A DNA stretch of 57,082 bases from Catajapyx aquilonaris (taxonomy: Eukaryota). The position numbers and the translations under genes are program-made. The notes beneath the pieces are model-generated. The model saw only the letters and a program-made list of their open reading frames with translations, was not told the origin of the DNA and did not search any database. How positions within the stretch are numbered: position 1 is the stretch's first letter; each line of letters opens with the position of its first letter. The stretch is taken from contig JYFJ02002430.1 in the NCBI GenBank assembly GCA_000934665.2, positions 1 through 57,082 of the forward strand, written 5' to 3'. Shown one piece after another: positions 8,501-55,621 of this stretch.

Positions 8501-11096
8501 GGAGCAACATATAATTATGTATTTGCATCACGTCCACCTCGTAATTTAGCAGCGGCCCACATACATAATTAGCAGATATCAGTAATTACCAGGCCAATCA
8601 GGACTCGGATTTTAGAACGCTAATGGCGTTTTATCATTTTAGAGCTAACAGAACCGTCACGTTTATTTGATGCATTCTTCTACACCGCCACGTCCTTTGA
8701 ATAATCAGAGCGGATTATATTTTTCCCTCCCCCTGGAGTCCTTTTTTGTGCAAAAAACTTTTGTGTTCATTTGTTATTTTCCTTGACGGAATTTATCAGT
8801 AATTATTACACGCTTTGGTCCACACAACGATTTTGTTAGTGACTTCCCGGCAGCAAAACACTTCATTAGGGCCTGATCGTGTCACCTTTTTTTTTCATTT
8901 CATGCCTTGCATAACTGATAGTGACCTACTTCCGGACGAATTACGTTCAATGAAATTCTCCCCTAATTGTGGAAAATGTGAGAGTAACGGCGCGGAACCC
9001 AAATTGTTTAGTCATTAACGAGAAACTTAATATTGCTATCGCAATGCCAGGGTCCCAAATTAAAACATGGCGATGGAAGGAATATTATGAAGGGTAAATG
9101 ACACGAAGTGGCTTATGAGGCTCGGATGTGTGTGGTGAAAGGGGAAATGGAGGCAGAGGGAGGGAGGGGGGGGGGGGAGGATATATCTCGTTCTGAAAAT
9201 TATGGTGACCGGTTTAATCAACCAAATGCTGCATCCGATGCATGAGGAAAGGTGAATCATGTGACTTTTCCTATATGAGAGCCTGTAGCATCTGCCCCGA
9301 ACAGTCAAACTCATGGATTTATATCAGGCAAGTGGTTGATGCAATTGTAAATAATGTAGGAAGGTTGTTTCGGCAAATGACCAATTACTAATCATTGTTT
9401 GCGAGACAATGACTTAATGGACATGATATTTAGAAAATGATGGAGACAAGCTACACGTTCTTGATGTAATGAGTTCATCTGCTTTGATATGCTGCCAAAG
9501 TGCTTCTTTTGCCTTGGCTAATGAAGCGGGGTTATAACCCGTGCGGATTACTTTGAAACTATGCAAATTGCGTCGCGGGAAAGAGGGTGCTGGGTTGATA
9601 TCAATAAGTAGTAACTGCTTGATAGTGGAGGGGAATGTTTGAAAGTGCGCCATAATTAACCGGCCAGAATATCAACTCTCAGTATTTAACATCTTGGTTC
9701 TGTTTGTTTTGGTGTATTAGCGAAGCCCAGGCAACTACGGCCATAATGCAGAGGCGAAAGGAGGAGAGCGAGAGTCTGATCTGAGTAAGTATGACTCGTC
9801 TCCGTCTGATTCTTTCATAACTTAATACCCCCATAGTAGTTCTTATCCCTACGACATTATTTTGGATTCCATTACGTCCGTCATGAGGAGTGGGCCCGAC
9901 GCGGGGACAAATCCATGACAGAAAGCCATACAAATACAAAATAGAACATCAACTTTTGCCGTGTCAGCATTTCAAGAGAACTTCAAAACAGGCTTAACTC
10001 TGGTATTAATTTTTATTTCATTCAAGGTGATAATTATGAACTCTTACTTACACGACATCATCGCATTATTGTTCTCCATTGTTGCTTATCATCGTTCATG
10101 AGGGTGTTCCTAACATGGATCTTAACTTAGAGCCAACAGGGTCTGAAATTCAATGCAAAGGAGTGAGCTCGACACATGCGAGTGACACAACAACATAACC
10201 AAGATATGTCAAAAATCTAGGAATTCAAATAATACCTTGAGACGAATCTTTTTTCAGCCCTTCGCCATGTAGTTCAGGAACACTCGCGGAGAAGGTAACA
10301 GTGTAACTACTTGAACATGGGGATAAAAATAAAGTTGGTTTCTCTTCGGATGCGAGAATATTCCGATGGGTAAAGTTAAAGTGAAAAATTGTTCCGCCAG
10401 AGTGAATGTGTGTCTTGGTGCCATTTCTTTGGATGCATGCATGTTGGATGTTTATGCAAACTGACAAACCAGCCCGTCCTTCAAACCGACTCATTCGGTC
10501 CGGTGGTACCAATGATGTCATGGTATCATCGTGGATTCTACAGAAAAGGGTACAGGTATAGTCCCTGTTTTACGATGGGGTTAGGTACCAGCAAAACAGG
10601 CACTTAAAATGAACTGTCATAAAATTAGGTCTCGCTACCTGTACATATCTATAGCCTCTGCCACAAACGTTAGGTTAGGTTAGGTTGGTACAACATTCCC
10701 GGATCCAAAAAATCCCAAATCCAAAAAAATCAATACTTGCATCCTTGCGTTTGCGACACAGCCGCAGCCCCCGGCCACTACTCACCCTCCCGCCTTCAGC
10801 GATGCCTGTCAACCCTACTCCTTCCGAAAAATATAGCTGTTTGGGGGGTGAAACACCCTGTATTTCGTGGCCTTTATTTTTTCGTTGAACAACACATTCC
10901 AATTGTAATGCGTTGACTTGCCAAGTCGCTATTAGAGAGATTACACAACATCTTCAGTTTCTCTGCAGCTTAATCTGTGCAGACCTGCTCATTCCCTAAT
11001 AGCTTATGGAGCCACGGCACTGGAAGGTAACGAGTGGGATCTACAACAGTTTATAAGCTTATTTGAGAAAATCACAACACGGTCAAGTCTAACAGA

Positions 11097-11591: not shown

Positions 11592-11858
11592 TATTTATTT
11601 ATCATACCCCATGCTAGAGCCTTTGGCTCCCTTAGGGGGGTGGATTACCACCATTGGATGGGACCAGGGATAGGGAAGGAAGGAAGCGGCTGTGGCCTAT
11701 TTTTACGGAAACGACCTCGGAATTGTCCTGGAGGGGACCATGGAAAACCACGGAAAACCACAGAAAACCATGGTCAGGGTCGCCGGCCGCGGGATTTGAA
11801 CCCAGGACCTCCCAATTAGCAGGCGGGCTCCTTATCCCCTACACCAACCTGCTTCGGT
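11592..11858 (-). mobile_element. tRNA-derived SINE, family A
   Basis: Minus-strand head ACCGAAGCAGGTTGGTGTAGGGG...GGGTTCAAATCCC (A and B boxes). TSD AAACATACAGTATTTT at 11576-11591 and 11860-11875. Homologous to 23080-23363 and 55296-55621. Confidence 0.9.
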
Positions 11859-18673: not shown

Positions 18674-18916
18674 AGGGTGGTATCCATTGCTCAATATCAA
18701 GGGGTTTCAACCCGTTCAATCCCTTGAATCAACCCTTTGAGTGGGCTTGAACCGAACCGAGTAGAGCACGACCCTACTTCATTCAACCCATTGAATTCAA
18801 GGGGTTGAATCAAGTAGGGTCATGTATGCTCTACTCGGTTCAAGCCCGCTCAAAGGGTTGATTCAAGGGGTTGAACGGGTTGAAACCCCTTGATATTGAG
18901 CAGTGGATACCACCCT
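18674..18916. mobile_element. 243-bp near-perfect palindromic foldback/MITE element
   Basis: AGGGTGGTATCCATTGCTCAATATCAAGGGGTTTCAACCCG...CGGGTTGAAACCCCTTGATATTGAGCAGTGGATACCACCCT; the symmetry extends to the centre (TTGAATTCAA). Confidence 0.8.
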
Positions 18917-21900
18917 TTACATTATAGTGATGGCAGACAATTCCGGTTTCCTGGCTCCTTATGGCATTTTAGGACTAAATGGTCTTCACCAGGCAATAGA
19001 ACAGAAAAAAAATTCAACTTTGTCGTATAACTCAAAACCGCCAAAATTGGAATTAGCAAGAGCCACGTGTATGCTGACTATATGATTTCTTTGATATAAC
19101 AGAGTGACCATTTATTCGCGTTACTTCCGCTCACATTTTAATTGTCGTCATTACCTACTCGGCACATACCTAAGTAGCTTGAGTCAAAGTAATCCTGTGA
19201 GGTTAGGAGCACGTGAGAGGTTGGCTTTTCTCATCCACACTGGTAATTAAAGATATTCCCCGGTTTTCGCTAACGTGTGCAAAGTAAACCTATTACGCAT
19301 TCCTCCCGACGGAAAATAAAGCCAGAAATTCTAGAGTATTCCCGCACTAGCCTGATTGCATATTCTTGCATTATACGAATATCCAGCTGAATTTCAACCA
19401 TCTCAACCTCTCCCTGTCTCTATGTAAATTTTGCAGGCAGGTAAAAATTCAAATAGGAGCCAGAAAGGGGATGAGGGGCAGAACGGCTTCAACTTAATGA
19501 AAGTGAAGAATATTGGATGTGTAAGGAATAACCAGCAGAGGAAGAAAAGGACTGTAGTGTCTGTATGTGGTTCGAAATTTTTTTCCTTCGATTATCCCTC
19601 CGGCCATATCCGTTTCCGACATTGGCAAAACGGCGTCGAAGCCACTGATCTCGACTTCGGCCGACGGTTTCGCTCCAGTCCTTCCAAGCTGACAAATGGT
19701 CTGGAGAGGATAATACCATCCAGAGGGAAGAGTTTTGGGATTGAAGAACGTCGGCCACCCCCAAGATGAGAGCTCTCTCCTTCTACCCCCACAATCCACA
19801 CCTCCCCACCAGACTCCCCCGTGGATCACTATCTCTATCCGTGCCAAAAAAGGAACTGTGAGAAAGATGGCCTTATTCCATCGGAGGGAGCCAACGAACT
19901 CAATATAACGTTCATTTCGCCTCCGAAGATGACCGAATGGGAATTATCTTTAATTCTCAGGAAAAAAGTTTTGTAGATGTAATCTGTGGCTCTTAATGAA
20001 AATTACAAGGTAACATGTTAACTATATAAAAACAGGAGATACAATGTGACAGTGGATAATTACATTCTGAAAGTATGGTATTTAAAAAAAAAGGATTATC
20101 CTGGAATATAAAGATAGAAATAAATAAAATTTCGATTGGGGAGCGCTTGACCCGCACCTCACTAAGTCTTCCACCCCACTAAGAGTTAATAAATATATTT
20201 AAAAAATCTTTCAAGGCCAAGAGTTGAGAATCCTGCAGGGTAAAGGTCCTATGTTATTTCCAACCTGACCCCTTGTTTGGCCTGCAGTGTGTCATCATGT
20301 GGGCAAGGCCGCACTGGATCCCACACTAACAACCTCTCGCGCTTGACATTTTCTGACACAAACATTTGCCTCACATCCCGCAGAGGAATGACGTCCATGC
20401 GCAGTTGGTGTCTTCAATGTAGAAGGTAACCGCAGCAGTTAAATCCGGTGTCATCACGCCCTACATTTAAAGCACAGGGGGATTTCTGGGAAACTCCCAG
20501 CTGTCCATCCGGAGTCTGAAGTTTGTGCCACCCGGTGATTAAATTACACCAAGCCATTGCGGTATTCCCTGGAAGACGGGCTGAGGGATTTATTTAGCCT
20601 ATCCAAATTATGGAATTGAGAAACGTGTCTGTACTTTCTGGAAGGAAAGCGTCGCGGGGACATGATGAAGTGAGAAATTTTACGCACTTATTCGCTTCTT
20701 CCTTCCGAGGCCGTCTTTAATTCGAATCCTTTATTCCATGCTCGTTCTATCCCCATTTAATCAAATTATAAGCCGGACGCGGAAAGAGAAGGAATTCCAA
20801 TGACTCCCTCTAATAAGATTATTAATGGCAATTTTCCTCATCCCTTCGCAAAATTTTCCCCTACCACGTTTTCCACTCTCCAAGATGAGCGATACGGTGA
20901 ATAATAACCACTTGAACCCAACTTGAATGCACTTAATTAAATACATATCTCAAATTTTGCGTATTAATTACAGTTGTGAAGCTTGTGTATATAGCCTAAC
21001 CATGAAGGCTCATGGCAGAATATACCTAGTTACTCTATTCAATGTGGATACTATGCATTTGTATTCCCTTGGAATATGGCATGCATGAGGTAAAGTACAG
21101 TACACTGTATATCCCACGAAGAGATGAAAGTTAGTGATACAAAACAGTCACAATTCACAAGAAAGTACATGGTACGGTATTGCAAATATCATTGTTACTT
21201 GAAAGAATAGATTGTCACAATACGCAACAAAGGCATATTATTGCGGTGCGAAATTCTTTTGTGGGGGGAAATAAAGTGGATCCCATTACTGTCATTTGCA
21301 TGCTGGTCACATTCACATCTGAACAGTAGGCAGTGTCACGTGGCGTATTTGACAATTAACTCACCTTTGTCATGTATGCTTCTTTCATTGGCCGAACACT
21401 TCAACTTCGATTCTGTGAGTGTCGCCGCCCTTTTGGAATTCACAAGCATGACGACTATTGTTCCCTGGCACTTTGGACAGTATTGACTCTCGTGCCATTT
21501 TTTTGTGCAGTGGGTGGGTGGGTGGGGGCATGGAAGCGAGAGAAGAAAGATAGGAATACTTATAAGTGTATAGGGACAAAATCGTGTCAAACTTTGCTTG
21601 TCATCCAATAATAAATAATAATAATTAACTACCTCAACTTTTTCAGTGTATTTTGCATATTCACTCACGCACATGAAATTCTCTTTTGCAAATGGACAGT
21701 CCCTACGCGTATAGAAACATATCCCATGTTCCCCTCTGCACACGCAAATTCAAAATACATCATTGCAGTTCTTGTTATAAAACTTCCCCCATGCCTATAG
21801 AGAAGCATTAAAGTACGATTCCCTTAAGAGTCCTCATAAACATGCATGTAAATATCCCTTCATGCTGTGCCGTGAATATTAACACGTTATTCCATCTCAC

Positions 21901-23079: not shown

Positions 23080-23363
23080 TAATTAATAATTCATACCCCG
23101 TTATCAACCATCGGCTCTTTAGGGGGGAAGTTTGTTTTGCCTGGAACCCTTTGCTTTCATTTTACTGTGCTCTTTGGGATAGGATAGGGACGGAAGGAAG
23201 CGGCTGTGGCCTATTAATTACGGAAGCAACTCCGGAATTTTCCTGGAAGGACCGTGGGAAACCACAGAAAACCACGGTCAGAGTTGCCGGCCCCGGGATT
23301 TGATCCCAAGACCTCCCGATTAGCAGTCGGACACCATATCCACTCCACCACTACTGCTTCGGT
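23080..23363 (-). mobile_element. tRNA-derived SINE, family A
   Basis: Same body as the other copies (GGAAGCGGCTGTGGCCTA...GAAACCACAGAAAACCA...ACCTCCC...CTGCTTCGGT). TSD AAAAAATTCATATATAA at 23063-23079 and 23364-23380. Confidence 0.9.
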
Positions 23364-35400: not shown

Positions 35401-38070
35401 GATTATTTTTTGGTCATCTGGTGCAAATGGTGCTTGATAGTGTCTACTACCAAGGTTAAGGCTAGTACTGCATAGGCCTACCAGGCGGGAAACAGAAATG
35501 AGATGTTGTGGTAAAAGTGCTGCGAATTTGCTATTTTTCAAAATTACCACAGAAGGCACCATGGACCTTAAAAATAATAATTTTAATGACATTAATAGAC
35601 GATGGCAAATTTTCCGGATGGATTTAATCCTGGAAAAAATTATTTCAGACCACACTGTCATGTGTTACACTTGCAGGATTTGAATTGAGTTTTATAAAAT
35701 TCAGTAATATATTTCCTTTTGTCTTGAACAAAAATCAACAACATTGGGTTATTTCAAACTTCCGTCATGTGGAAAGTAAATTACTGTGAATGAGGTGTAA
35801 TGAAATATAAACGAATGAGTTTTGATTCGTTACGTAACATCAATGCTCTCTCAGATGGGCTGATACAAAACCAACTCTTTTACGTAGCTCACGTGAACCG
35901 TATGCGTGCATCTGCCCCATTGTGCACTGCATTCCTAAGCTTTGACACACATACGATTGCTTTACGCCACCAGCTGCTCACAGGCAACTTTTATTACAGA
36001 TATTGCGTATTGTTATAGGGGAGGAGATAGGACATAACTACTCTACCATTATCATTACAATTCTGCATTACAAAAATTATTGCCTTGGATTACCGTATGT
36101 TACACAGTCCCTAACGACGAGCAACTAAAATGTGGAATAGTTAACCAATATCATTTCCCTTTAATATGAACTGCATACAAAGAAAAAAAGGATTTCGAAA
36201 TGCGAGTAATAGTCGGCTGTCATTATTTTTATTTCACATGCGTGGTCGTATAAAGCTTTTCATGAAATGCCAATAAATTACCCCCCAAAAAAACCCCGCT
36301 TTATAATTTCTATGCAAGTGTATCGATTGGCTCTCTATTCAGTGTTATATTATTTTCTACACTCACTGCAAGTCCATGTGGTCTTTACCATATTAAATAT
36401 TTACTTGTTAAAACGAATCCTCGAAATAACATCATGCGAGTGCTTCCTGCATATATACTAGCTAATATGTTTGCACTAAGCAGAATCTTCTTAAGCAAAC
36501 ACTTTTGAATAGTTTTCAAAAGTGGTTTATCATACGTAACAGCTGCTAATATTAGGCCGAATTATCTATCCAAGCTCTGAATAGCAATGAATTTCCGATT
36601 AAGAATGGCCCATTGAACTACTGGCATAGAAAGTCAACGTTGAAACTCATTTTTCTTACAGGGTTTTTAATTGATGTGTTCAGGCAACCTTACGGGTATA
36701 TTAGTAACTAATATTTTTGATACTAAACTAATTTAAAAAGTAACTGCTTAAAATAGGCATCTTAGTGCCAAAAAAAATCGTTCACTACTACCGACATTTC
36801 AATGGGAACATCATGTATGCATACAGATGACCAGTCTCTCTCCGTCACTCAATACTGGGCTGGGCATCAATATCTACTTGCTCTTGAGGTCACACACATA
36901 ATTCTTCTCCATTTCCTTCATAATTGCCTTCAGTAGAGCATCAATCTGTAGTATAACACTAGACCAAGAATAGCAACTTATTTTAAAATTACCATTTACA
37001 TACTTCCATCCAAGCAAGGCTTATTTAGAAGCCTGTAAGACGCTGTACTTATTTTATAATAGCAATAGGTCATCACATATTCAACAAATTTTTAAAAAAA
37101 GTTAAAAATGCAATATTAATTCACGACACGCGCTTTGCATTTTTGTTCATGCTCTCTCTTCCTAGCCAGCTATAGTAAAGACAACTAAAAATATATATTC
37201 TCGTATGTTTATTAAGAGACGTAACTGAACTGCCTGTCACGACCAAAAAAACGTAGCCTATTTACGAAAAATAAAGCACAGCATGGATTATTCACACTCG
37301 TCGTACAGAGAAACCAGCCTTATGAAGTAGTCCTGAAACCACCGTCTTAACTTAATTTCACCTCACACCCCCAACCCAAGAACAATAACACGATTGCAAA
37401 AATGCGGAATTTGTCCATGCATATGATAATTTTTCTAAGGTATAGGCCTACGCGCCAATCTTGTGTCAAATTCAATTTTATAAAAATAGTTAAATAAAAA
37501 TTTAATAAAGCGTAAGTGGATGCCTTTCACAAAATGCGATTTAACTGCTTTCGCACAAAATCTTCTAACACCCGAGATTATTCTATGAGCACTGATAATA
37601 AATGAGTTAATTTATTTTTCAATCAACATTAATAGGTCGGTGAGTGGGTGTTCACTGAGAGAAGTTTTTGCCTTAATAATAGGGAAAACACAGAATATTC
37701 CCCGATTAATCCGTTGACAACAACATCGTATATCTGCTTCATTTCCAGCTATCCCATGAAAATATTTTTCCCGATATTCATTATCAGCCTTACGGTTAAT
37801 TCGACCATTACCGAGAAAATGAAATGCGCATTAGATGTTTCAAAACAAGGCTGACACAGCCAGGTAGTATCATGCGCTGAATCCCATTGTTATTTCCCTG
37901 GATTTCGCCACATAGCGACGTAGCACGTACAGATTGTTTGGTAACCCACATAAAGCGCAGCCATTGGTTACATCCACCTGGTAGTACCATTCCAATACTA
38001 CGTCAACACTTGCTATCTGTTGATTCGCAACGAAATCTGCAATTTGGGCCATTTGACGTGGTGACTCCCG

Positions 38071-38107
38071 GATAAATAGGAATACACAGTCGTCCCAGCA
38101 GTCATTC
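38071..38107 (+). promoter_or_regulatory. Core promoter of the apolipoprotein-like gene (TATA-like plus Inr)
   Basis: GATAAATAG at 38071-38079 lies about 31 nt upstream of TCATTC (38102-38107), which matches the arthropod Inr consensus TCAKTY, about 80 nt before the ATG. Confidence 0.55.
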
Positions 38108-38181: not shown

Positions 38182-39202
38182 ATGAAGCTTGCACAGTTCT
38201 TCGTTCTGCTGGCAACAGCATGCTATGTCCAGGTACGTATTCCGATATTCGGTTACTAGTTATTGTCCTAATGTCATTTTGCCATTGTAGGGTGCCTCCA
38301 TCAAGGAAGTGTTCCCCCAGAGTGCATCGGCTATTACGCAGATTGGCGGACAAATGCAACCCGAAATCCAAAGAGCCGTTAGCGATATCGAAATGCAATC
38401 AGCCAAAATGCTAACTCCTCTGACGGTAAGAAATCACTTTCATAGCAATCTCTACTCAAACTGTTCAGTGAATCACCTGAGTTGAGATCAGTGTAATTTC
38501 AATGCCCATCGCGGATGATCTCAAAGCAGAATTGTGAACTGGACCGACTGAGTAAAGATGCTGGTATTATCGCCGAGGAAAATAATTCGGTTTAAGTTTA
38601 GACTAGAAATTAATTGTCTCACTTATGTTGCAGGCACAGGCAGCACAGCTTCTCCAGGTCGCCCAGAGCGTTCCAGTCAGCGCCATCAAAGAGCAGTTGG
38701 CCAGCGCAGTGTCTCGTTTGACTCCCCAGATGACCGACACATTTATCAAGCTGATCCCTGAAGCCGCTAAGCTGGAAGCAGCCATTGAAGAAAACTTTAA
38801 CGCTTTCACTCAAGATATTGCTCCTCAAATGGCAGCAGTCAAGCAAATGGTAAGCTAACATTTCATTTTTGGTGTCGTTTTGCTCAAGGGCAGAAGATCC
38901 CACCTCCCAAACAGCCTTTTACGCAGATTAGAATTGGTTTTGCTAGTGCATGAAACGTTGATCTAATTCACTATAATTTTCCACAGATTCAGCCAGAACT
39001 TCAGGCAGTCAAGGAACAGCTTATGCCTGTGGTTCAGCAGGCTATGCCTATTGTAAAAGAGATGGGCAATCAAATTGTGTCCAACTACCCAGCCTTGCAG
39101 CAAGCGGCCATTCAAAATTTTGCTACCCTAGTACAGCAGGCTGCCCCAGCATTGCAGAGTTTGATGGAGAGTGTCGCTGCAGACATGGCCAATACCAATT
39201 AA
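38182..39202 (+). CDS. Secreted apolipoprotein-like (amphipathic helical) protein, 205 aa, 4 exons: 38182-38232, 38291-38425, 38634-38849, 38987-39202
   Basis: ATG at 38182 starts a signal-peptide-like MKLAQFFVLLATACYVQ|GAS. Three GT-AG introns, all phase 0 (donors GTACGT, GTAAGA, GTAAGC; acceptors TTGTAG, TTGCAG, CCACAG), give a continuous frame to TAA at 39200-39202. Exon 3 corresponds to ORF 38625-38858. The protein is rich in Ala/Gln/Met/Leu with periodic Pro. The gene model is well supported; the product family is inferred. Confidence 0.9.
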
Positions 39203-39360
39203 TGTAACAGGATTGGGAGTAGCTCATACTGCACTATTGAGTAATGTAGATTCGTGAATTAATTAGGCTTATTAGATTTATCAGTAGTTAATAATTCGGG
39301 GACTTGAAAATTATATATCAATCTAATTTAATTGGAGTGGTATGTAAACATTTCAATTTT

Positions 39361-39366
39361 AATAAA
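39361..39366 (+). terminator. Polyadenylation signal of the apolipoprotein-like gene
   Basis: Canonical AATAAA about 160 nt downstream of the stop codon. Confidence 0.6.
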
Positions 39367-41549
39367 GAACAGCAGCAGGACTATTATTTGAACATTATTG
39401 AGTTAGATTCTGGAATTCCAATGAAATTGTGGTATTAGCTCATATTCTTATTAGACCTAATAAAATCTGGCTATTTAAATTGAGACTCTTATTTTTCACA
39501 ACGTAACTGTTACTTTAATTATGTATAGTTCTTTTATTTTCATAGATTTGTCCACATTTGAGGGTTACACGTAAGCCTTAACCAAGAACAATGTGGCATT
39601 AACGTTGTTGTAACATGGCCAGTAACAAATGACTGAATATTTTTGATAAACAGCACATAGGGCCAGTACCGAGGCCAGTACACTATTGCAACATGCTTCG
39701 CTAATCAGTCAACACTACACACTTTGTAGGGAACAATTTCCCCCCTGTATTTTTGAGCAGTATGCCACAAGACGTGTACAGTGTGTAATACGGTTTGCCA
39801 CTTGCAAGAATACCGATATTAATACTACTGTACGAACTGCAGTCTAATAACTTATACTACTAATGTTTGTGAGACACTTCCTGTATCCCAACAGAAATCA
39901 CAGTTATTTGTCCTGTATAAGCTGGTGAAGCAATAAATTATTATGTGCATCCAAACTATTCACAGCCTACTGCCTAATAATTTCCATTTGCCTTTCTCCA
40001 AACATTTTGACAAACATGATTCATAATATTATGGAATGTCTGAAATCCATACAGAATGAACATTTAATTTTCCCATTTTTCTTGGCTACAATAGCATTTA
40101 AAGTTGTTTAAATGCAGCGCTGAACTTCATGGTTGCATAGTTTCCGGAGATTTTAAACCCTGTATTAGTGGTTCTGTTAGTCATTTTACATAAGGCAATT
40201 ACTGTATTTTCAGGTTATATAGAACGTACATTATTTTCCTTGCTATCAGGATTATTTCTGCATCCTAATTAGCAAGCCAAAGACAAGTGACTTTTACAAA
40301 AACTCGAATTGAATTGAATGTATAGTCATTCATATACAAAACACCGAGATCGAAGGCAGGTAAATGATGGAGTAATAAGGGCGGGAAAAGAGTGCATGAA
40401 CATTTCCGTGGAGCAGTTTCCAACCTGAGGACTACGCTGATAGACACCCTATCGAAGAAAATTATTTTTAAAGGGTGATGTTAAGGAGGTGATTACACTA
40501 AAACATTCCAATTTTCATCTTCATGTTCAGTTCCTCCACAATTTTTTACCCTGAAATATGCAGTCATGGCTTTCATTTTTCATTTTTTTTAGAAAACTCA
40601 CTTTACCCTTTTAAAAATGAAGTTTGAACCTTTCTCTATCGCTTAAAATAATTGAAGCAAAACGTTTACAAGTACAGCACGACACAAACTATTCAGTAAA
40701 TACACGAACTTTGGACCCCCCTGTCCGGAGAAATACGCGAAAATTTGAAATCAATATCCTACGCAAGCTTGAATGAATACAGAAATTATTCCATTCAAGA
40801 TTAAATCCCTCGCAGTTGCACCATACCAGCCTGTTCTACAATACTTCATTAATATACCCCCTTCCATTTTGAATGCCGCTTGTGATATAGGCAAACTTAA
40901 TAATTCTTCCCATTCTCCTCCCCCGGTTCGGTTAGGTAGGCTACACTCTAGACCCAAAAACCCTGCGATATAACAACACAGCGTGTGTTACCTGCAGCAG
41001 CTCATTCCAAAGGCCCGCAGAGGAGCATCTCCGGAGGAATTTGGATCATTATCCTTTACCCCCCACCCCCTATCCCTTTCCTCACTCAACCTACCCCTAT
41101 CCTACCCTTCCCACCCCCACCCGAAAATGACTTTGGTAACTAATTGGATCCCCCGGGGGAACTTTCGTCTTCATCCAGAACCTCGCTGCCAACGAATCCC
41201 TTTTCTCGCCCGATGCCTCATTTTGCATCGCTCGGATGAGCCGAAAATCAGGCAGAAAAGTAGCTGTTGCCATACATCTTTTTAGGTCTGACTCCTTTAC
41301 ACCCTCTTTCCAGCCGAAGGATTTATCACATGGGCGTATCTGACGATAGTAATTTGCTTATGAACGACCAGGGAACACTTTGCAACATCACGGACTTGAA
41401 TCTCTTTGAAAGCGGTCTGTTGGCAACTCTGCAGGAAGGGAAAGAAATCTAATCTGGTTTTAAACGCTTGCAAAATGGGTTTTGGTTAGGAGATGGAGGT
41501 TTATCAAAAAATGTGTTTTCCTCCCCGGCAGGGCTTGAGGTGATTTGCC

Positions 41550-43288: not shown

Positions 43289-44861
43289 TAATGATGTAAG
43301 ATTTAGAAGTGAAGCTAATTTTACCTGTTTTGTTATTGCAAAAATTCGAAATATTGTAATTATCTCATTTTACAATCAAAGCGTTGGAGTAGGAATAAAA
43401 TAGTTTGGACCGGCACAATAATACGTATTATTAGTTCTTTTTAATGACACATTAGTGCAATGCATTAGTGTCTCAAAATATCAGTCATAATCTATGATTG
43501 CTTGACAAATAAAAATAAAAATAATCTAACGTTCCTATTTGAGCTTACTGCCATGCTTTTTAAGTGGAAAAACTCGCAAAATTGAAAGTTTCAAAAGTTG
43601 ATTATCACAATACCAGAATAGATAGGACAAACTTGGGTTTCACTTTTTCATCTGACATTATTACGAACAATATTTCCACCGGAACTTGTAGCGGTCAGAG
43701 GAAAAAGCCATCCTGTGGGAGGTGTCCTGTGATCTGGAGAAAACCGCTGATTAGAGAGTCATCGTGGGTGGGAAATAGTTTGGATATTATTTTATAGACA
43801 TTTCTTAACTCTTTAGAATTTATTACATGTGATAGGCATGGTGATAGGAGATGAGATTCTGCTTTTGGTATTTAAAAATATATACGTATATCAGTGAATA
43901 TTAAGATTCCGTTACTGACATTGAAAAGTTGACTTCTTTGTAAATTTATATAAATAAATTCATATGATTCCTCACATCGTTGTAAATCCCGTGATACCTT
44001 GGCAAGTGCAAGTAGTTGCAGAGATATTAACAAATATGAAACGTTATATGTCACTCCGACTTCCTCTTTTGACCTTGGCGTTTCCCTTGACCTGACCCTA
44101 TATAGCAAGCATCAGATTCTACTGTTGCACCACTCTTTTTGGAGTAACCAGCCATGCCAATTATTGTCAGTGGTGCTAAAATATGTCGGGTGACATCTTT
44201 CAATGATATGTCGTGGGATGCCCGACCACTGAAGAGCAATAACGAAATTTCAAGGGAAATTTGAATGTTCTGAAAGCACTGGGGCATAAAAGCAGCAAAA
44301 TTCTCAACTGTCACGGTTGCCGTAAAGTTGACATGTCCAATTATTTAGTCATTGTTGTAAACCGGTTATATAGGCCTAGTTATCTTTAAATATCTCAACT
44401 TAAATATCTCTCCTCTGAGTAGTGAAAATTAAAATTGAAAGTTGAGAAATTGTAATTTTAAAAAAAGGGTTTCAAAAAATAAGGCACTACGAATCTGCCA
44501 AAATTTAAGTTTTTAAATTTATGACAATGGAAGGTGATTAGTCAGTATTTTGTGGTACGTATTGTTCATTAACAATAAGTATAATCAAATTAAATGGTAT
44601 GCATTATTACCAATTTTAATGTCTCATTTGAGGTGTTGGCAAATTTTGCAATCAGCATTAAGCATTGATTTCATTAAATATCAGTTTTCGTGAACAAGAT
44701 TCTACTCAAAAAATGATCATGATCTGCTTCTGTCATAAAAATTAAAATTCTGTCAAGCTCCTCACAAGTTCTGAGGCCGTTTTGAACGCGAATAAAATTG
44801 CACATTCTCAATTCTTATTATATATGGGCCACATTTTCACTATTCAAACAAAATACACATA

Positions 44862-44953
44862 CAGGGTGTTCAAAGTATTTGGATCACTTTTTGATAACTG
44901 ATATCGCCCGATAGCAGTTATCAAGAAGTGGCCCAAATACTTGGAACACCCTG
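44862..44953. mobile_element. Tc1/mariner-type MITE
   Basis: TA|CAGGGTGTTCAAAGTATTTGG...CCAAATACTTGGAACACCCTG|TA: long imperfect TIRs with a TA target duplication. Confidence 0.85.
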
Positions 44954-45094
44954 TATGGCTGTATTGATAGTAAAGACTGAGTTTAACTTATCATCTCATA
45001 TGATTTGGAAAAATTTCAACTCAAAATTAGAGTAGTACGGTACACCGCAAAATGAATCGGTTTTGAAGAAAATAAGCCTATAATTATGTTCATT

Positions 45095-51952: not shown

Positions 51953-53225
51953 CCTGGTCAAGCAATGATGTCGAGTGAATCATCACTTGCACGCCTGTGT
52001 CCTGTTTCCTAGGCAATTATTACGCTTCGCAGAAGATCTGACAGGCTAATTGCACTTGAGGACGACGCACAGACACTTAACCCTGTTGGAACTGGACCTT
52101 TATTACTCTGTGCCATGTAGATCTACCGGTTAGAGTCAGAGTCAACCTGACCACATAATTATATAGGGTAGAGTTAGAAGGAGGGAGTCAGTAACCCGGA
52201 GAAGTATAGGCCTATATAGGCACCTCTGTCTGCTCAGTGTAGTTCTACGTGTACACTTCAATCTTGAGTTTAATTTCAATTATAAATACAAGTGCTAACA
52301 TCTGAGAGCTGCCGACTTTGCAGGACTCGCTGATTTCTGGCGAAATTATTGCTAGGCTGTGGCATTGACGCTAGTTACACACTGAGTGAGACTACATCGC
52401 ATAGATATACAGTATGAAGAGGAAGGCAAGGATAGCAGATTGGCAGTGGTGATCACTGAACTGGCACAATCCATTAGTGCGGCATTATTTTGGGCAATCA
52501 TAAATTGTATAGGAAGCTGAATGGTGCAATGTATTTCATATACATGTAAATACTCATGCTTATAATTATGTAAATAGAAGTCACTACGGTATATTATTTT
52601 GCTGATGAAAAATAATGCAATTATTCATTTGGACCCTTTCAAACTACAATATTCATCTTTCAACTGATTGAAAGACGGGAATTTATTTACATGCATATTT
52701 CGGTTTTTAGAGAATAACAAACTATCAGACCTCGATTTATACGAAATAATTATTTGCCAATTATCTCAACACAATCTGCAATAATCTGACAGCTGATGCT
52801 GTATAATGCGAGTTCAGTACTCAGGTATCACTGTTCTTCGGGTGTATACATTTATCCAGAAAATATTGAAATAAGATGCACATTTCTCGGGAAGTTTCCT
52901 TAAGGTGGAATATTTTCTGAGTGGAAATTCTTAAGTTGCACTGCTTCAGGTCTTGTCAGGATGTTTTGAGTTTAATGGCATGCCAACAAACTCTTAAGAC
53001 TTCATTCTCTCTTAAAGTCTGCATAGCCAGAGGTTCCTTTCTTTTGGAAAATCAAACATTTTGAATTTCGCTGGTTCAGGTTAATCTTAAATTAGTTTGC
53101 ACATTACTCTTTAATTTTTTTGAATTCAATACCTTGCTTAGTAAGGTACTTTTATGTACTGTACAGTATGCACTTTACGACCTATATTTTGCAATATATA
53201 TTGCAAAATATATACACAGTACGTA

Positions 53226-53387
53226 CAGTGTTGGACATTAATCGAGGCATATTGCTAGCGATATTTTCCGAAGCGGCAGAAAAAGGAATCGAAGATAAGG
53301 ATACTGCAAGCCGGGCGAGCAAAATTCCTTTTTCTGCCGCTTCAGAAAATGTCCCTGGCAGTATGCCTCGATTTATGTCCAACACTG
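53226..53387. mobile_element. Tc1/mariner-type MITE
   Basis: TA|CAGTGTTGGACATTAATCGAGGCATA...TATGCCTCGATTTATGTCCAACACTG|TA, with inverted arms of about 60 bp. This explains the mirror-image ORFs 53120-53446 and 53182-53421. Confidence 0.88.
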
Positions 53388-53602
53388 TACGTGCATTCTT
53401 CCCTGTTAAATCAGATCTCAAATTATTTGTTAATAATATATGTTAAAACTATCCAACTTCATGATAATAGGGATTCGCAATAAGGAAACCCATATAAATA
53501 CTGCTCCGGACATTAATTTTAATTTTAATATACAGTGTAAGAAAGATATATACATACATTATTCTAACATCCTACGCTAGAACATTCTGGAACAAAGCAA
53601 AA

Positions 53603-55334: not shown

Positions 55335-55621
55335 TGATACCCCATTATCAGCCCTTTGGGCTTTAGGGGGGGATTTCTCCCAATTTTTTTGTCTGGAACT
55401 CTTTCCATTTTTACTATACTTTTTCATCGGAATTGAGGCAAGGATAGGTAAGGAAGGAAGCGGCTGTGGCCTATAATTACGGTAACGACCCCGGAATTAT
55501 TCTGCGATGACCATGGGAAACCACAGAAAACCATGATCAGGGTCGCCGGCCTCCGGGATTCGAACCCAGGACCTCCCGATTAGCAGTGGACACCATACCA
55601 CTACACCACTACTGCTTCGGT
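55296..55621 (-). mobile_element. tRNA-derived SINE, family A
   Basis: Same body; B box GGGTTCGAATCCC on the minus strand. TSD GCCATAAATAAT at 55284-55295 and 55622-55633. Confidence 0.9.

Follow-up and report, generated by a model that had tools for sequence, protein, structure and literature searches.

A proline-punctuated 11-residue amphipathic repeat in a predicted secreted protein of Catajapyx aquilonaris, tentatively of the exchangeable apolipoprotein type

Exchangeable apolipoproteins have so far been described from vertebrates, from amphioxus in one report, and from insects, where they comprise apolipophorin-III (apoLp-III) and Nplp2. Passages of PMC11433772 portray vertebrate apoA-I as a series of 11- or 22-residue repeats that are parted by prolines and predicted to form class A helices, in which acidic residues occupy the middle of the polar face and basic residues its interface (PMC7279153, in the part available). 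For apoLp-III of Anopheles stephensi, an excerpt of PMC5383653 gives a length of 194 residues including a 19-residue signal, a mature chain of 175 residues with an isoelectric point (pI) of 5.13, a first coding exon of 45 nt and five helices; the locust protein opens to an elongated helix around dimyristoylphosphatidylcholine discs, as recounted in parts of PMC9581338. Here we report on a gene located at positions 38182–39202 of the plus strand of contig JYFJ02002430.1 of Catajapyx aquilonaris (assembly GCA_000934665.2, 285.6 Mb in 20,583 contigs), whose predicted secreted product of 205 residues displays a closely comparable 11-residue design. The window that we analysed is this one entire contig of 57,082 nucleotides.

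Our preferred reading, to which we assign a probability of roughly 40%, is that the gene encodes a lineage-specific secreted protein of the exchangeable apolipoprotein type in which the vertebrate-like 11-residue design has been reached independently. We favour it because the chain has a hydrophobic period of 98.0 degrees with a single near-invariant apolar column, carries prolines on the polar side of the helix and resembles apoA-I in layout; because its hydrophobic moment lies near that of perilipin 3, its size and pI lie near those of apoLp-III and it lacks a transmembrane segment; and because the genome encodes partner lipid-transfer proteins and contains no match to the apoLp-III family PF07464 over the cut-off. 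The broader proposition that the protein binds lipid surfaces, which also takes in its being an apoLp-III or a deep homologue of the vertebrate proteins, is rather probable.

The initial annotation of the locus, made from the sequence by eye, had assembled a spliced 205-residue product, and this gene model is upheld: four phase-0 exons, interrupted by three GT..AG introns that measure 58, 208 and 137 nt, encode 205 amino acids and a stop. The gene and the features discussed below are laid out as follows.

38182–38232 (+): coding exon 1, residues 1–17, signal-peptide-like as judged from its translation
38233–38290 (+): intron 1, 58 nt, phase 0, GT..AG, predicted from splice signals and reading frame
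38291–38425 (+): exon 2, residues 18–62, amphipathic helix with strict 11-residue register from residue 47, Pro60
38426–38633 (+): intron 2, 208 nt, phase 0, GT..AG, skipped by a public contig
38634–38849 (+): exon 3, residues 63–134, with in-register Pro93, Pro104 and Pro126
38850–38986 (+): intron 3, 137 nt, phase 0, GT..AG, skipped by the same public contig
38987–39202 (+): coding part of exon 4, residues 135–205 and stop, with in-register Pro137 and Pro148
39203–39772 (+): 3' untranslated region (UTR), covered by the spliced contig, AATAAA at 39361 and 39459
38378–39187 (+): unbroken hendecad (11/3) region, residues 47–201, 155 residues
38676–39187 (+): possible 62-residue internal duplication, residues 77–139 against 139–201, ungapped, 14 of 63 identical
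38073–38106 (+): putative core promoter, with a TATA-like hexamer (38073–38078) and an arthropod-initiator-like pentamer (38102–38106) about 30 nt apart

The transcript evidence consists of a single contig from one study, the public run being of unrecorded kind (RNA or DNA). This contig, the one among the run's 85,611 that was aligned, spans exons 2–4 together with 570 nt of the 3' UTR and leaves out precisely the predicted introns 2 (208 nt) and 3 (137 nt), whose ends are GT..AG; no contig of the run aligned to the introns or to the upstream DNA. Since the introns are skipped and the assembly shows no second, intronless copy, we infer that the contig is derived from cDNA; we do not take its depth of 1,783 to measure expression. 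The splicing of three introns, as originally proposed, is thereby established for introns 2 and 3; intron 1 is left unbridged, and the first seven letters of the contig, which do not align, fit a splice from an upstream exon without demonstrating one. At its other end the contig extends 300–400 nt beyond both AATAAA signals, which may reflect alternative polyadenylation. The TATA-like and initiator-like elements upstream of the gene, identified by the consensus of the TATA and arthropod initiator motifs, would fit a transcription start near 38104.

None of the exons appears among the 38 stop-to-stop open reading frames (ORFs) of at least 100 residues in the window. In the organism's own genome exons 2 and 3 each match a single place, and exon 4 has one extra match, which contains a stop and has an E value of 1.6; these single-exon searches thus reveal no paralogue. 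At 36627 five residues are matched on the minus strand, but this place was ruled out as a paralogue, and we recognised no further amphipathic gene of the kind within the window.

The mature chain (residues 19–205) comprises 187 residues with a mass of 20.1 kDa and an acidic pI of 4.6. As previously noted, it is devoid of cysteine, tryptophan and histidine; it contains 32 alanines (17%), 27 glutamines and one tyrosine, and only 26 of the 187 residues (14%) are charged, namely 10 Lys/Arg and 16 Asp/Glu. Its grand average of hydropathy (GRAVY) is +0.08. We found neither an N-glycosylation site in the mature chain nor a transmembrane segment (best 19-residue hydropathy 0.83). The N-terminus has a basic start and a hydrophobic core, with 8-residue windows reaching a hydrophobicity of 1.25, and probably constitutes a signal peptide that would be cleaved after Gly18. 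By composition and hydrophobicity the protein may thus be secreted, as proposed, with the proviso that the first exon is the one not bridged by the public contig.

The strongest signal in the mature chain is its hydrophobic periodicity, which surpasses that of the prolines. The periodicity peaks at 98.0 degrees, equivalent to 11 residues per three turns, with a power of 2,704, where 100 degrees gives 254 and the heptad angle of 102.9 degrees gives 418, and this peak was unmatched at any angle in 2,000 shuffles. When the wheel is numbered such that Pro60 occupies column 1, column 10 is filled by large apolar residues in 15/15 units of residues 47–201 and is apolar in 15 of the 16 units of residues 27–202, for which none of 20,000 shuffles was as good; columns 2, 3 and 6 are each apolar in 8/16 units. 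On this 11/3 wheel the prolines lie at 0 degrees, on the polar side, and the apolar face is centred at about 130–230 degrees, a phase that is retained in all eight 22-residue blocks. The mean hydrophobic moment amounts to 0.34. Helical-wheel and moment analysis hence bear out the suggestion of a long amphipathic 11/3 helix with polar-side prolines.

It was the prolines that first drew attention to the locus. Pro60, 93, 104, 126, 137 and 148 do all fall at 5 modulo 11, with spacings of 33, 11, 22, 11 and 11; their register does span two exon junctions (after residues 62 and 134), and the three 11-mers quoted in the initial annotation were located at 38817, 38987 and 39020. The mature chain holds 12 prolines in total, the six others (26, 41, 76, 155, 169 and 188) being off register. 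The chance of finding at least six of 12 prolines in one modulo-11 class is 0.0016, or 0.012 allowing for 25 moduli; it is 0.004 with the hydrophobic positions fixed, and 0.026 (5/8) if prolines are confined to hydrophobic-x-Pro-x-hydrophobic sites. With p values ranging from 0.0016 to 0.026 under these chance models, the proline register is real but moderate.

Superimposed on the 11-residue pattern is the possible internal duplication with a lag of 62 residues. Its alignment places Pro93 on Pro155 and Pro126 on Pro188, both targets being off register, and exon 2 can be loosely aligned to the same unit of about 62 residues. In column-preserving shuffles the repeat has a p value of 0.002 when multiples of 11 are left out of the lags compared, and of 0.065 when every lag is counted. 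Judging by this alignment, the repeat may explain two of the off-register prolines (155 and 188), and the gene could possibly have originated by duplication of a helical unit of about 60 residues.

Structure models were made by AlphaFold2 for exons 3 and 4 individually, from the single sequences without alignments. Exon 3 is modelled with helices at exon residues 2–12, 15–27 and 31–70 (pLDDT 76, pTM 0.35), and exon 4 as one helix of 68 residues, exon residues 2–69 (pLDDT 88, pTM 0.46). Foldseek returned nothing at E ≤ 0.001 with the exon 3 model, and the best matches of a fold search with the same model (Z about 5) were generic long helices with an rmsd near 20. When exons 3 and 4 were modelled together as a complex the score was 0.00, which speaks neither for nor against their association.

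Relatives were sought with single exons (45–72 residues) or with a three-exon alignment, queries that would miss proteins at 25–30% identity; because exon-sized queries are this insensitive, the negatives on relatives in general and on apoLp-III in particular are weak. A word search for longer proteins among 5.8 billion gave 0/240 candidates at E ≤ 10 for exon 3 and 0/144 for exon 4, and 0/3,656 at E ≤ 1 for the three-exon alignment. Amongst 1.84 billion representatives, phmmer with exon 3 found two matches, P0004 (820 residues) and P0005 (1,886 residues), and no arthropod protein; both matches were dismissed as relatives, being long repeat proteins whose scores are summed over 5–6 weak stretches, and P0005 in addition has dynein and ubiquitin domains. 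With exon 3 the ESM Atlas yielded only unnamed clusters below 0.9, and exon 4 drew no match there. In the JGI metagenomes exon 3 obtained 0/594 and exon 4 1/577, the sole match being rejected as an antisense frame across a bacterial gene cluster that, labelled by eye, looks like type VI secretion. NCBIfam returned chance rows only. At the sensitivity of these queries there is no confident match to apoLp-III or to any other family, in keeping with the original description of the protein as possibly uncharacterised.

Two kinds of weak match did emerge. Of three Pfam rows for exon 3 the apolipoprotein family PF01442 ranks second, with 14.1 bits and an E value of 0.04, against a whole-protein cut-off of 90. 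Among 177,635 sequences of the Protein Data Bank (PDB) the best match of exon 4 is human apoA-I (15.3 bits, E=0.26), and apoA-I constructs account for the top 8 rows and for 9/13 rows overall (E=0.26–0.67); the three-exon profile retrieved no apolipoprotein from the PDB.

The resemblance to apoA-I is more apparent in the layout of the helix, which we compared by a hand count on 94 apoA-I residues from the exon 4 search. In this apoA-I stretch the prolines are spaced by 22 and 44 residues and the apolar columns are 3, 6 and 10; columns 7, 9 and 11 take up 13/16 of its Lys/Arg, and columns 1, 4, 5 and 8 take up 17/17 of its acids. The Catajapyx protein shares with apoA-I/A-IV/E the prolines spaced by 11, 22 and 33 on the polar side of a long 11/3 amphipathic helix, the apolar columns 3, 6 and 10, and a lean of the basic residues toward columns 7, 9 and 11, which hold 7/10 of its Lys/Arg compared to 4/16 of its Asp/Glu (Fisher p=0.03, with the columns chosen post hoc). 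The vertebrate proteins are secreted, as is predicted here from the signal-peptide-like start, and the repeat region comes near the length of a shortened apoA-I belt (2n5e, 167 residues).

Several observations weigh against an exchangeable apolipoprotein. The centre of the polar side shows no enrichment of acids (9/16 in columns 1, 4, 5 and 8, p=0.18); the charged fraction of 14% compares with 35% (33/94) in the apoA-I stretch; column 10, and not column 6 as in apoA-I, is the most consistently apolar; and the mature protein has no tryptophan and a single tyrosine. The apoA-I-style design put forward initially therefore holds for the proline-punctuated 11/22-residue repeats and only partially for the class A charge pattern. 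A HeliQuest-type discriminant, which penalises acidic helices and was applied with its customary hydrophobicity scale and thresholds (0.68 and 1.34), is at least 0.68 in 5/170 18-residue windows and at least 1.34 in none. Its formula is set out in the part of PMC10808001 that is available. With exon-sized queries no orthologue came to light, so that conservation of the prolines is unsupported. Finally, when the exons were compared with a large profile library, the top match overall was that of exon 4 to the phage tape-measure family phrog_5493 (17.4 bits, E=0.0021). Because this match beats the one to apoA-I, the hendecad pattern is not specific for lipid binders.

Many of these same points suit the main rival explanation, which we regard as unlikely on balance and nonetheless to be taken seriously. 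It holds that the product is a structural or glandular secretion (a glue, thread, spermatophore, cuticle coat or surfactant-like component) whose apolar stripe packs helix against helix in a straight hendecad coiled coil or in a bundle, lipid transport having no role. The low charge, the richness in alanine and glutamine and the broad apolar face are all suited to helix–helix packing, as would be the single 68-residue helix modelled for exon 4; the tape-measure match and the few windows exceeding the lipid-binding discriminant point in the same direction, and orphan status is typical of fast-evolving secretions. Coiled-coil insect silks display a seven-residue apolar period and few prolines. 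The heptad period is absent from our protein, in which the best modulus-7 column scores 12/25 (p=0.33), and twelve prolines in 187 residues would be unusual for a continuous fibrous coiled coil. Size, pI and the absence of cysteine match exchangeable apolipoproteins instead, and the lean of Lys/Arg toward the interface columns likewise speaks against a purely structural role.

A further possibility is true homology: the protein could be an apoA-I/A-IV/E homologue that was kept from a bilaterian ancestor along with its proline-punctuated 11/22 repeats. The layout of prolines and apolar columns, the apoA-I rows for exon 4 and the PF01442 row for exon 3 would agree with such a descent, and an amphioxus apoA-I is cited in PMC7431520, in the portion available, so the family may predate vertebrates. 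We consider this explanation very unlikely, and the vertebrate-family homology entertained at the outset is not sustained: the scores are insignificant, and both the apoA-I match (E=0.26) and the PF01442 match (14.1 bits) are weaker than that to the tape-measure family. Moreover, PF01442 matches arise in 13/14 prokaryote control genomes, and a bacterial growth-pole protein of Agrobacterium has apoA-IV-like segments according to parts of PMC8262873. The tape-measure and growth-pole proteins resemble ours as helical repeats that score against it or look apoA-IV-like; they differ in being viral or prokaryotic and 1,000–2,000 residues long, with no sign of common descent, and together they show that the hendecad pattern arises repeatedly. 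For these reasons the likeness to vertebrate apolipoproteins, as far as sequence can tell, is one of pattern and not evidence of descent. The Catajapyx protein further departs from apoA-I/A-IV/E in the density of its charge, the uncentred placement of its acids and its more numerous prolines, half of them off register; the possible internal repeat of 62 residues would speak for an origin of its own. Its arthropod gene also has two phase-0 introns inside the repeats. In vertebrate apolipoprotein genes a single long final exon holds most of the repeats, and genes may also acquire introns.

Next to the vertebrate proteins, apoLp-III is the obvious point of reference, and an apoLp-III orthologue diverged beyond recognition in this early-branching lineage, i.e. 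a five-helix bundle that would open on diacylglycerol-loaded lipophorin, is conceivable though rather improbable. Both proteins belong to a 20-kDa class of acidic, helical and amphipathic chains of similar length with a signal-peptide-like start, and in both a short first coding exon (51 nt here and 45 nt in Anopheles) ends near the signal peptide. The genome has lipophorin-type genes, with 26 PF01347 matches representing genes of large lipid-transfer proteins, and lacks any other apoLp-III candidate, since its five weak PF07464 matches all remain below the cut-off and none lies at our locus; those inspected proved to be unrelated coiled-coil-like frames. In opposition to orthology, none of the three exon queries (exons 2–4) produced a PF07464 row, the PDB sequence searches returned no apoLp-III structure, and no arthropod protein was retrieved for exon 3. 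The mature chain of 187 residues exceeds the approximately 160–175 residues of apoLp-III, making it about 20 residues longer than is typical, and an 11-residue register unbroken over 155 residues, with exon 4 modelled as a continuous helix, is at odds with the loops that a five-helix bundle should have. On the initial remark that apoLp-III is not usually described with such proline punctuation, one apoLp-III paper contained neither the word proline nor the word repeats.

Two open frames of about 1,540–1,590 residues on contig C2577 (matches at 18867–19118 and 9947–10402) give some of the highest-ranking matches in the genome, though weak ones, to the Pfam models for ApoLp-III and Apolipoprotein. 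They contain helical segments rich in threonine, glutamate, leucine and lysine; one of the two carries near-exact 11-residue tandem repeats.

Eleven-residue repeats are also found outside the apolipoproteins, which raises the question of whether the protein could serve in stress protection, as do late embryogenesis abundant (LEA) proteins of group 3 and type I antifreeze proteins, or could be an offshoot of the perilipins that is secreted. LEA group 3 proteins are highly hydrophilic, and type I antifreeze proteins consist of an alanine-dominated helix with a threonine every 11 residues. Our protein has a GRAVY of +0.08, large apolar residues in column 10 and no LEA row in Pfam; its alanine content is 17%, and its nine threonines are spread over seven columns without forming a threonine column. 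11/3 amphipathic helices are nevertheless a feature of a tardigrade group 3 LEA protein, with a small apolar face and secreted homologues (passages of PMC10808001), and of the perilipins, for which parts of PMC10694602 give a hydrophobic moment of 0.32 for the 11-mers of perilipin 3 and a PAT motif of the form (L/I)EPQ(L/I). The likeness to the latter extends to low charge, to the similar moment (0.34 here) and to several proline pentapeptides that resemble the PAT motif. It ends at the signal-peptide-like start and the lack of a PAT domain or any sequence match: no perilipin row (PF03036) was returned by Pfam, our locus is not among the genome's four PF03036 matches, which lie on another contig, and three of the four perilipin segments align with our protein no better than shuffles, the fourth having an uncorrected p of 0.034. 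We therefore rate a stress protein or perilipin offshoot as hardly probable at all. What the perilipins do illustrate is that lipid binding is compatible with a moderate moment, since that of the perilipin 3 11-mers is similar. Two of the genome's perilipin segments are adjacent and very similar to each other (contig C388, 17420–21057, minus strand) and apparently represent a tandem duplication.

Returning to an exchangeable apolipoprotein-type protein as the preferred reading, its mode of action can be envisaged as follows. Having been secreted from whichever tissue would produce it, the protein would be free in body fluid with its apolar stripe buried in a loose helix bundle or a dimer. Upon meeting a lipid surface, be it a lipoprotein particle, a lipid droplet or a membrane with packing defects, it would open to a long curved helix, the straight apolar stripe lying on the lipid and the polar-side prolines acting as kinks. 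At 1.5 angstrom per residue, a ring made by 176 residues would come to about 8.4 nm, which is the size of the belt of a discoidal high-density lipoprotein. Because of the low charge and the alanine/glutamine-rich polar face, our analysis suggests that binding would proceed by hydrophobic contact, as in the perilipin 11-mers, more than by the lysines of class A helices. Drosophila Nplp2 is a much shorter protein. It offers a precedent for a lineage-specific secreted arthropod exchangeable apolipoprotein, being named as such in a title cited in the available part of PMC13142913, and is set beside ours by description only.

The contig is rich in repeats and apparently carries just this one gene: the 38 long ORFs of the window, to which no gene finder was applied, include none that convincingly belongs to another protein-coding gene. 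A dispersed repeat some 170–180 nt long, with a tRNA B-box-like motif, occurs three times, at 11668–11846, 23182–23350 and 55442–55609, and, labelled by eye, is probably a short interspersed nuclear element (SINE). Local inverted repeats at 18674–18916, 44840–44975 and 53221–53392, with arms of 82, 67 and 69 nt, are probably remnants of mobile elements; in the last of them the two strands carry open frames that resemble each other, and the one on the minus strand has no Pfam match. Elsewhere in the genome, contig C453 carries near 69645–69911 a gene for a gustatory receptor (7tm_7, E=5.5e-19), the coding part of which runs through three successive frames, indicative of either short introns or a broken gene. 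In an exon-by-exon search with 15 candidates, the best of which was checked, the genome's best match to the odorant-receptor model is this same gene, which scores far better as a gustatory receptor; on this rather slender basis the genome appears to be without clear insect odorant receptors, and its owner may be an arthropod other than an insect.

The literature that we searched, which excluded most subscription journals and supplements, gave no published account of a secreted, proline-punctuated 11-mer protein from an arthropod. The early hexapod and crustacean papers searched make no mention of apolipophorin-III, and the portion of PMC8545670 available to us gives for crustaceans only the large apolipoproteins of the lipid-transfer type. 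On present sequence grounds we do not class the Catajapyx protein as a member of either the vertebrate family or apoLp-III. If it does not bind lipid it would merely be another orphan secreted helix protein. If it does, a low-charge natural belt of about 8 nm, free of cysteine and tryptophan, could serve as a nanodisc scaffold, and the locus would provide a concrete gene with which to probe the long-debated relation between apoLp-III and apoA/E. A proline-punctuated belt in an arthropod would, if true, mean that this design has evolved more than once or far predates the vertebrates; and should deep homology turn out to be true, the vertebrate apolipoproteins and apoLp-III would be joined to one bilaterian ancestor.

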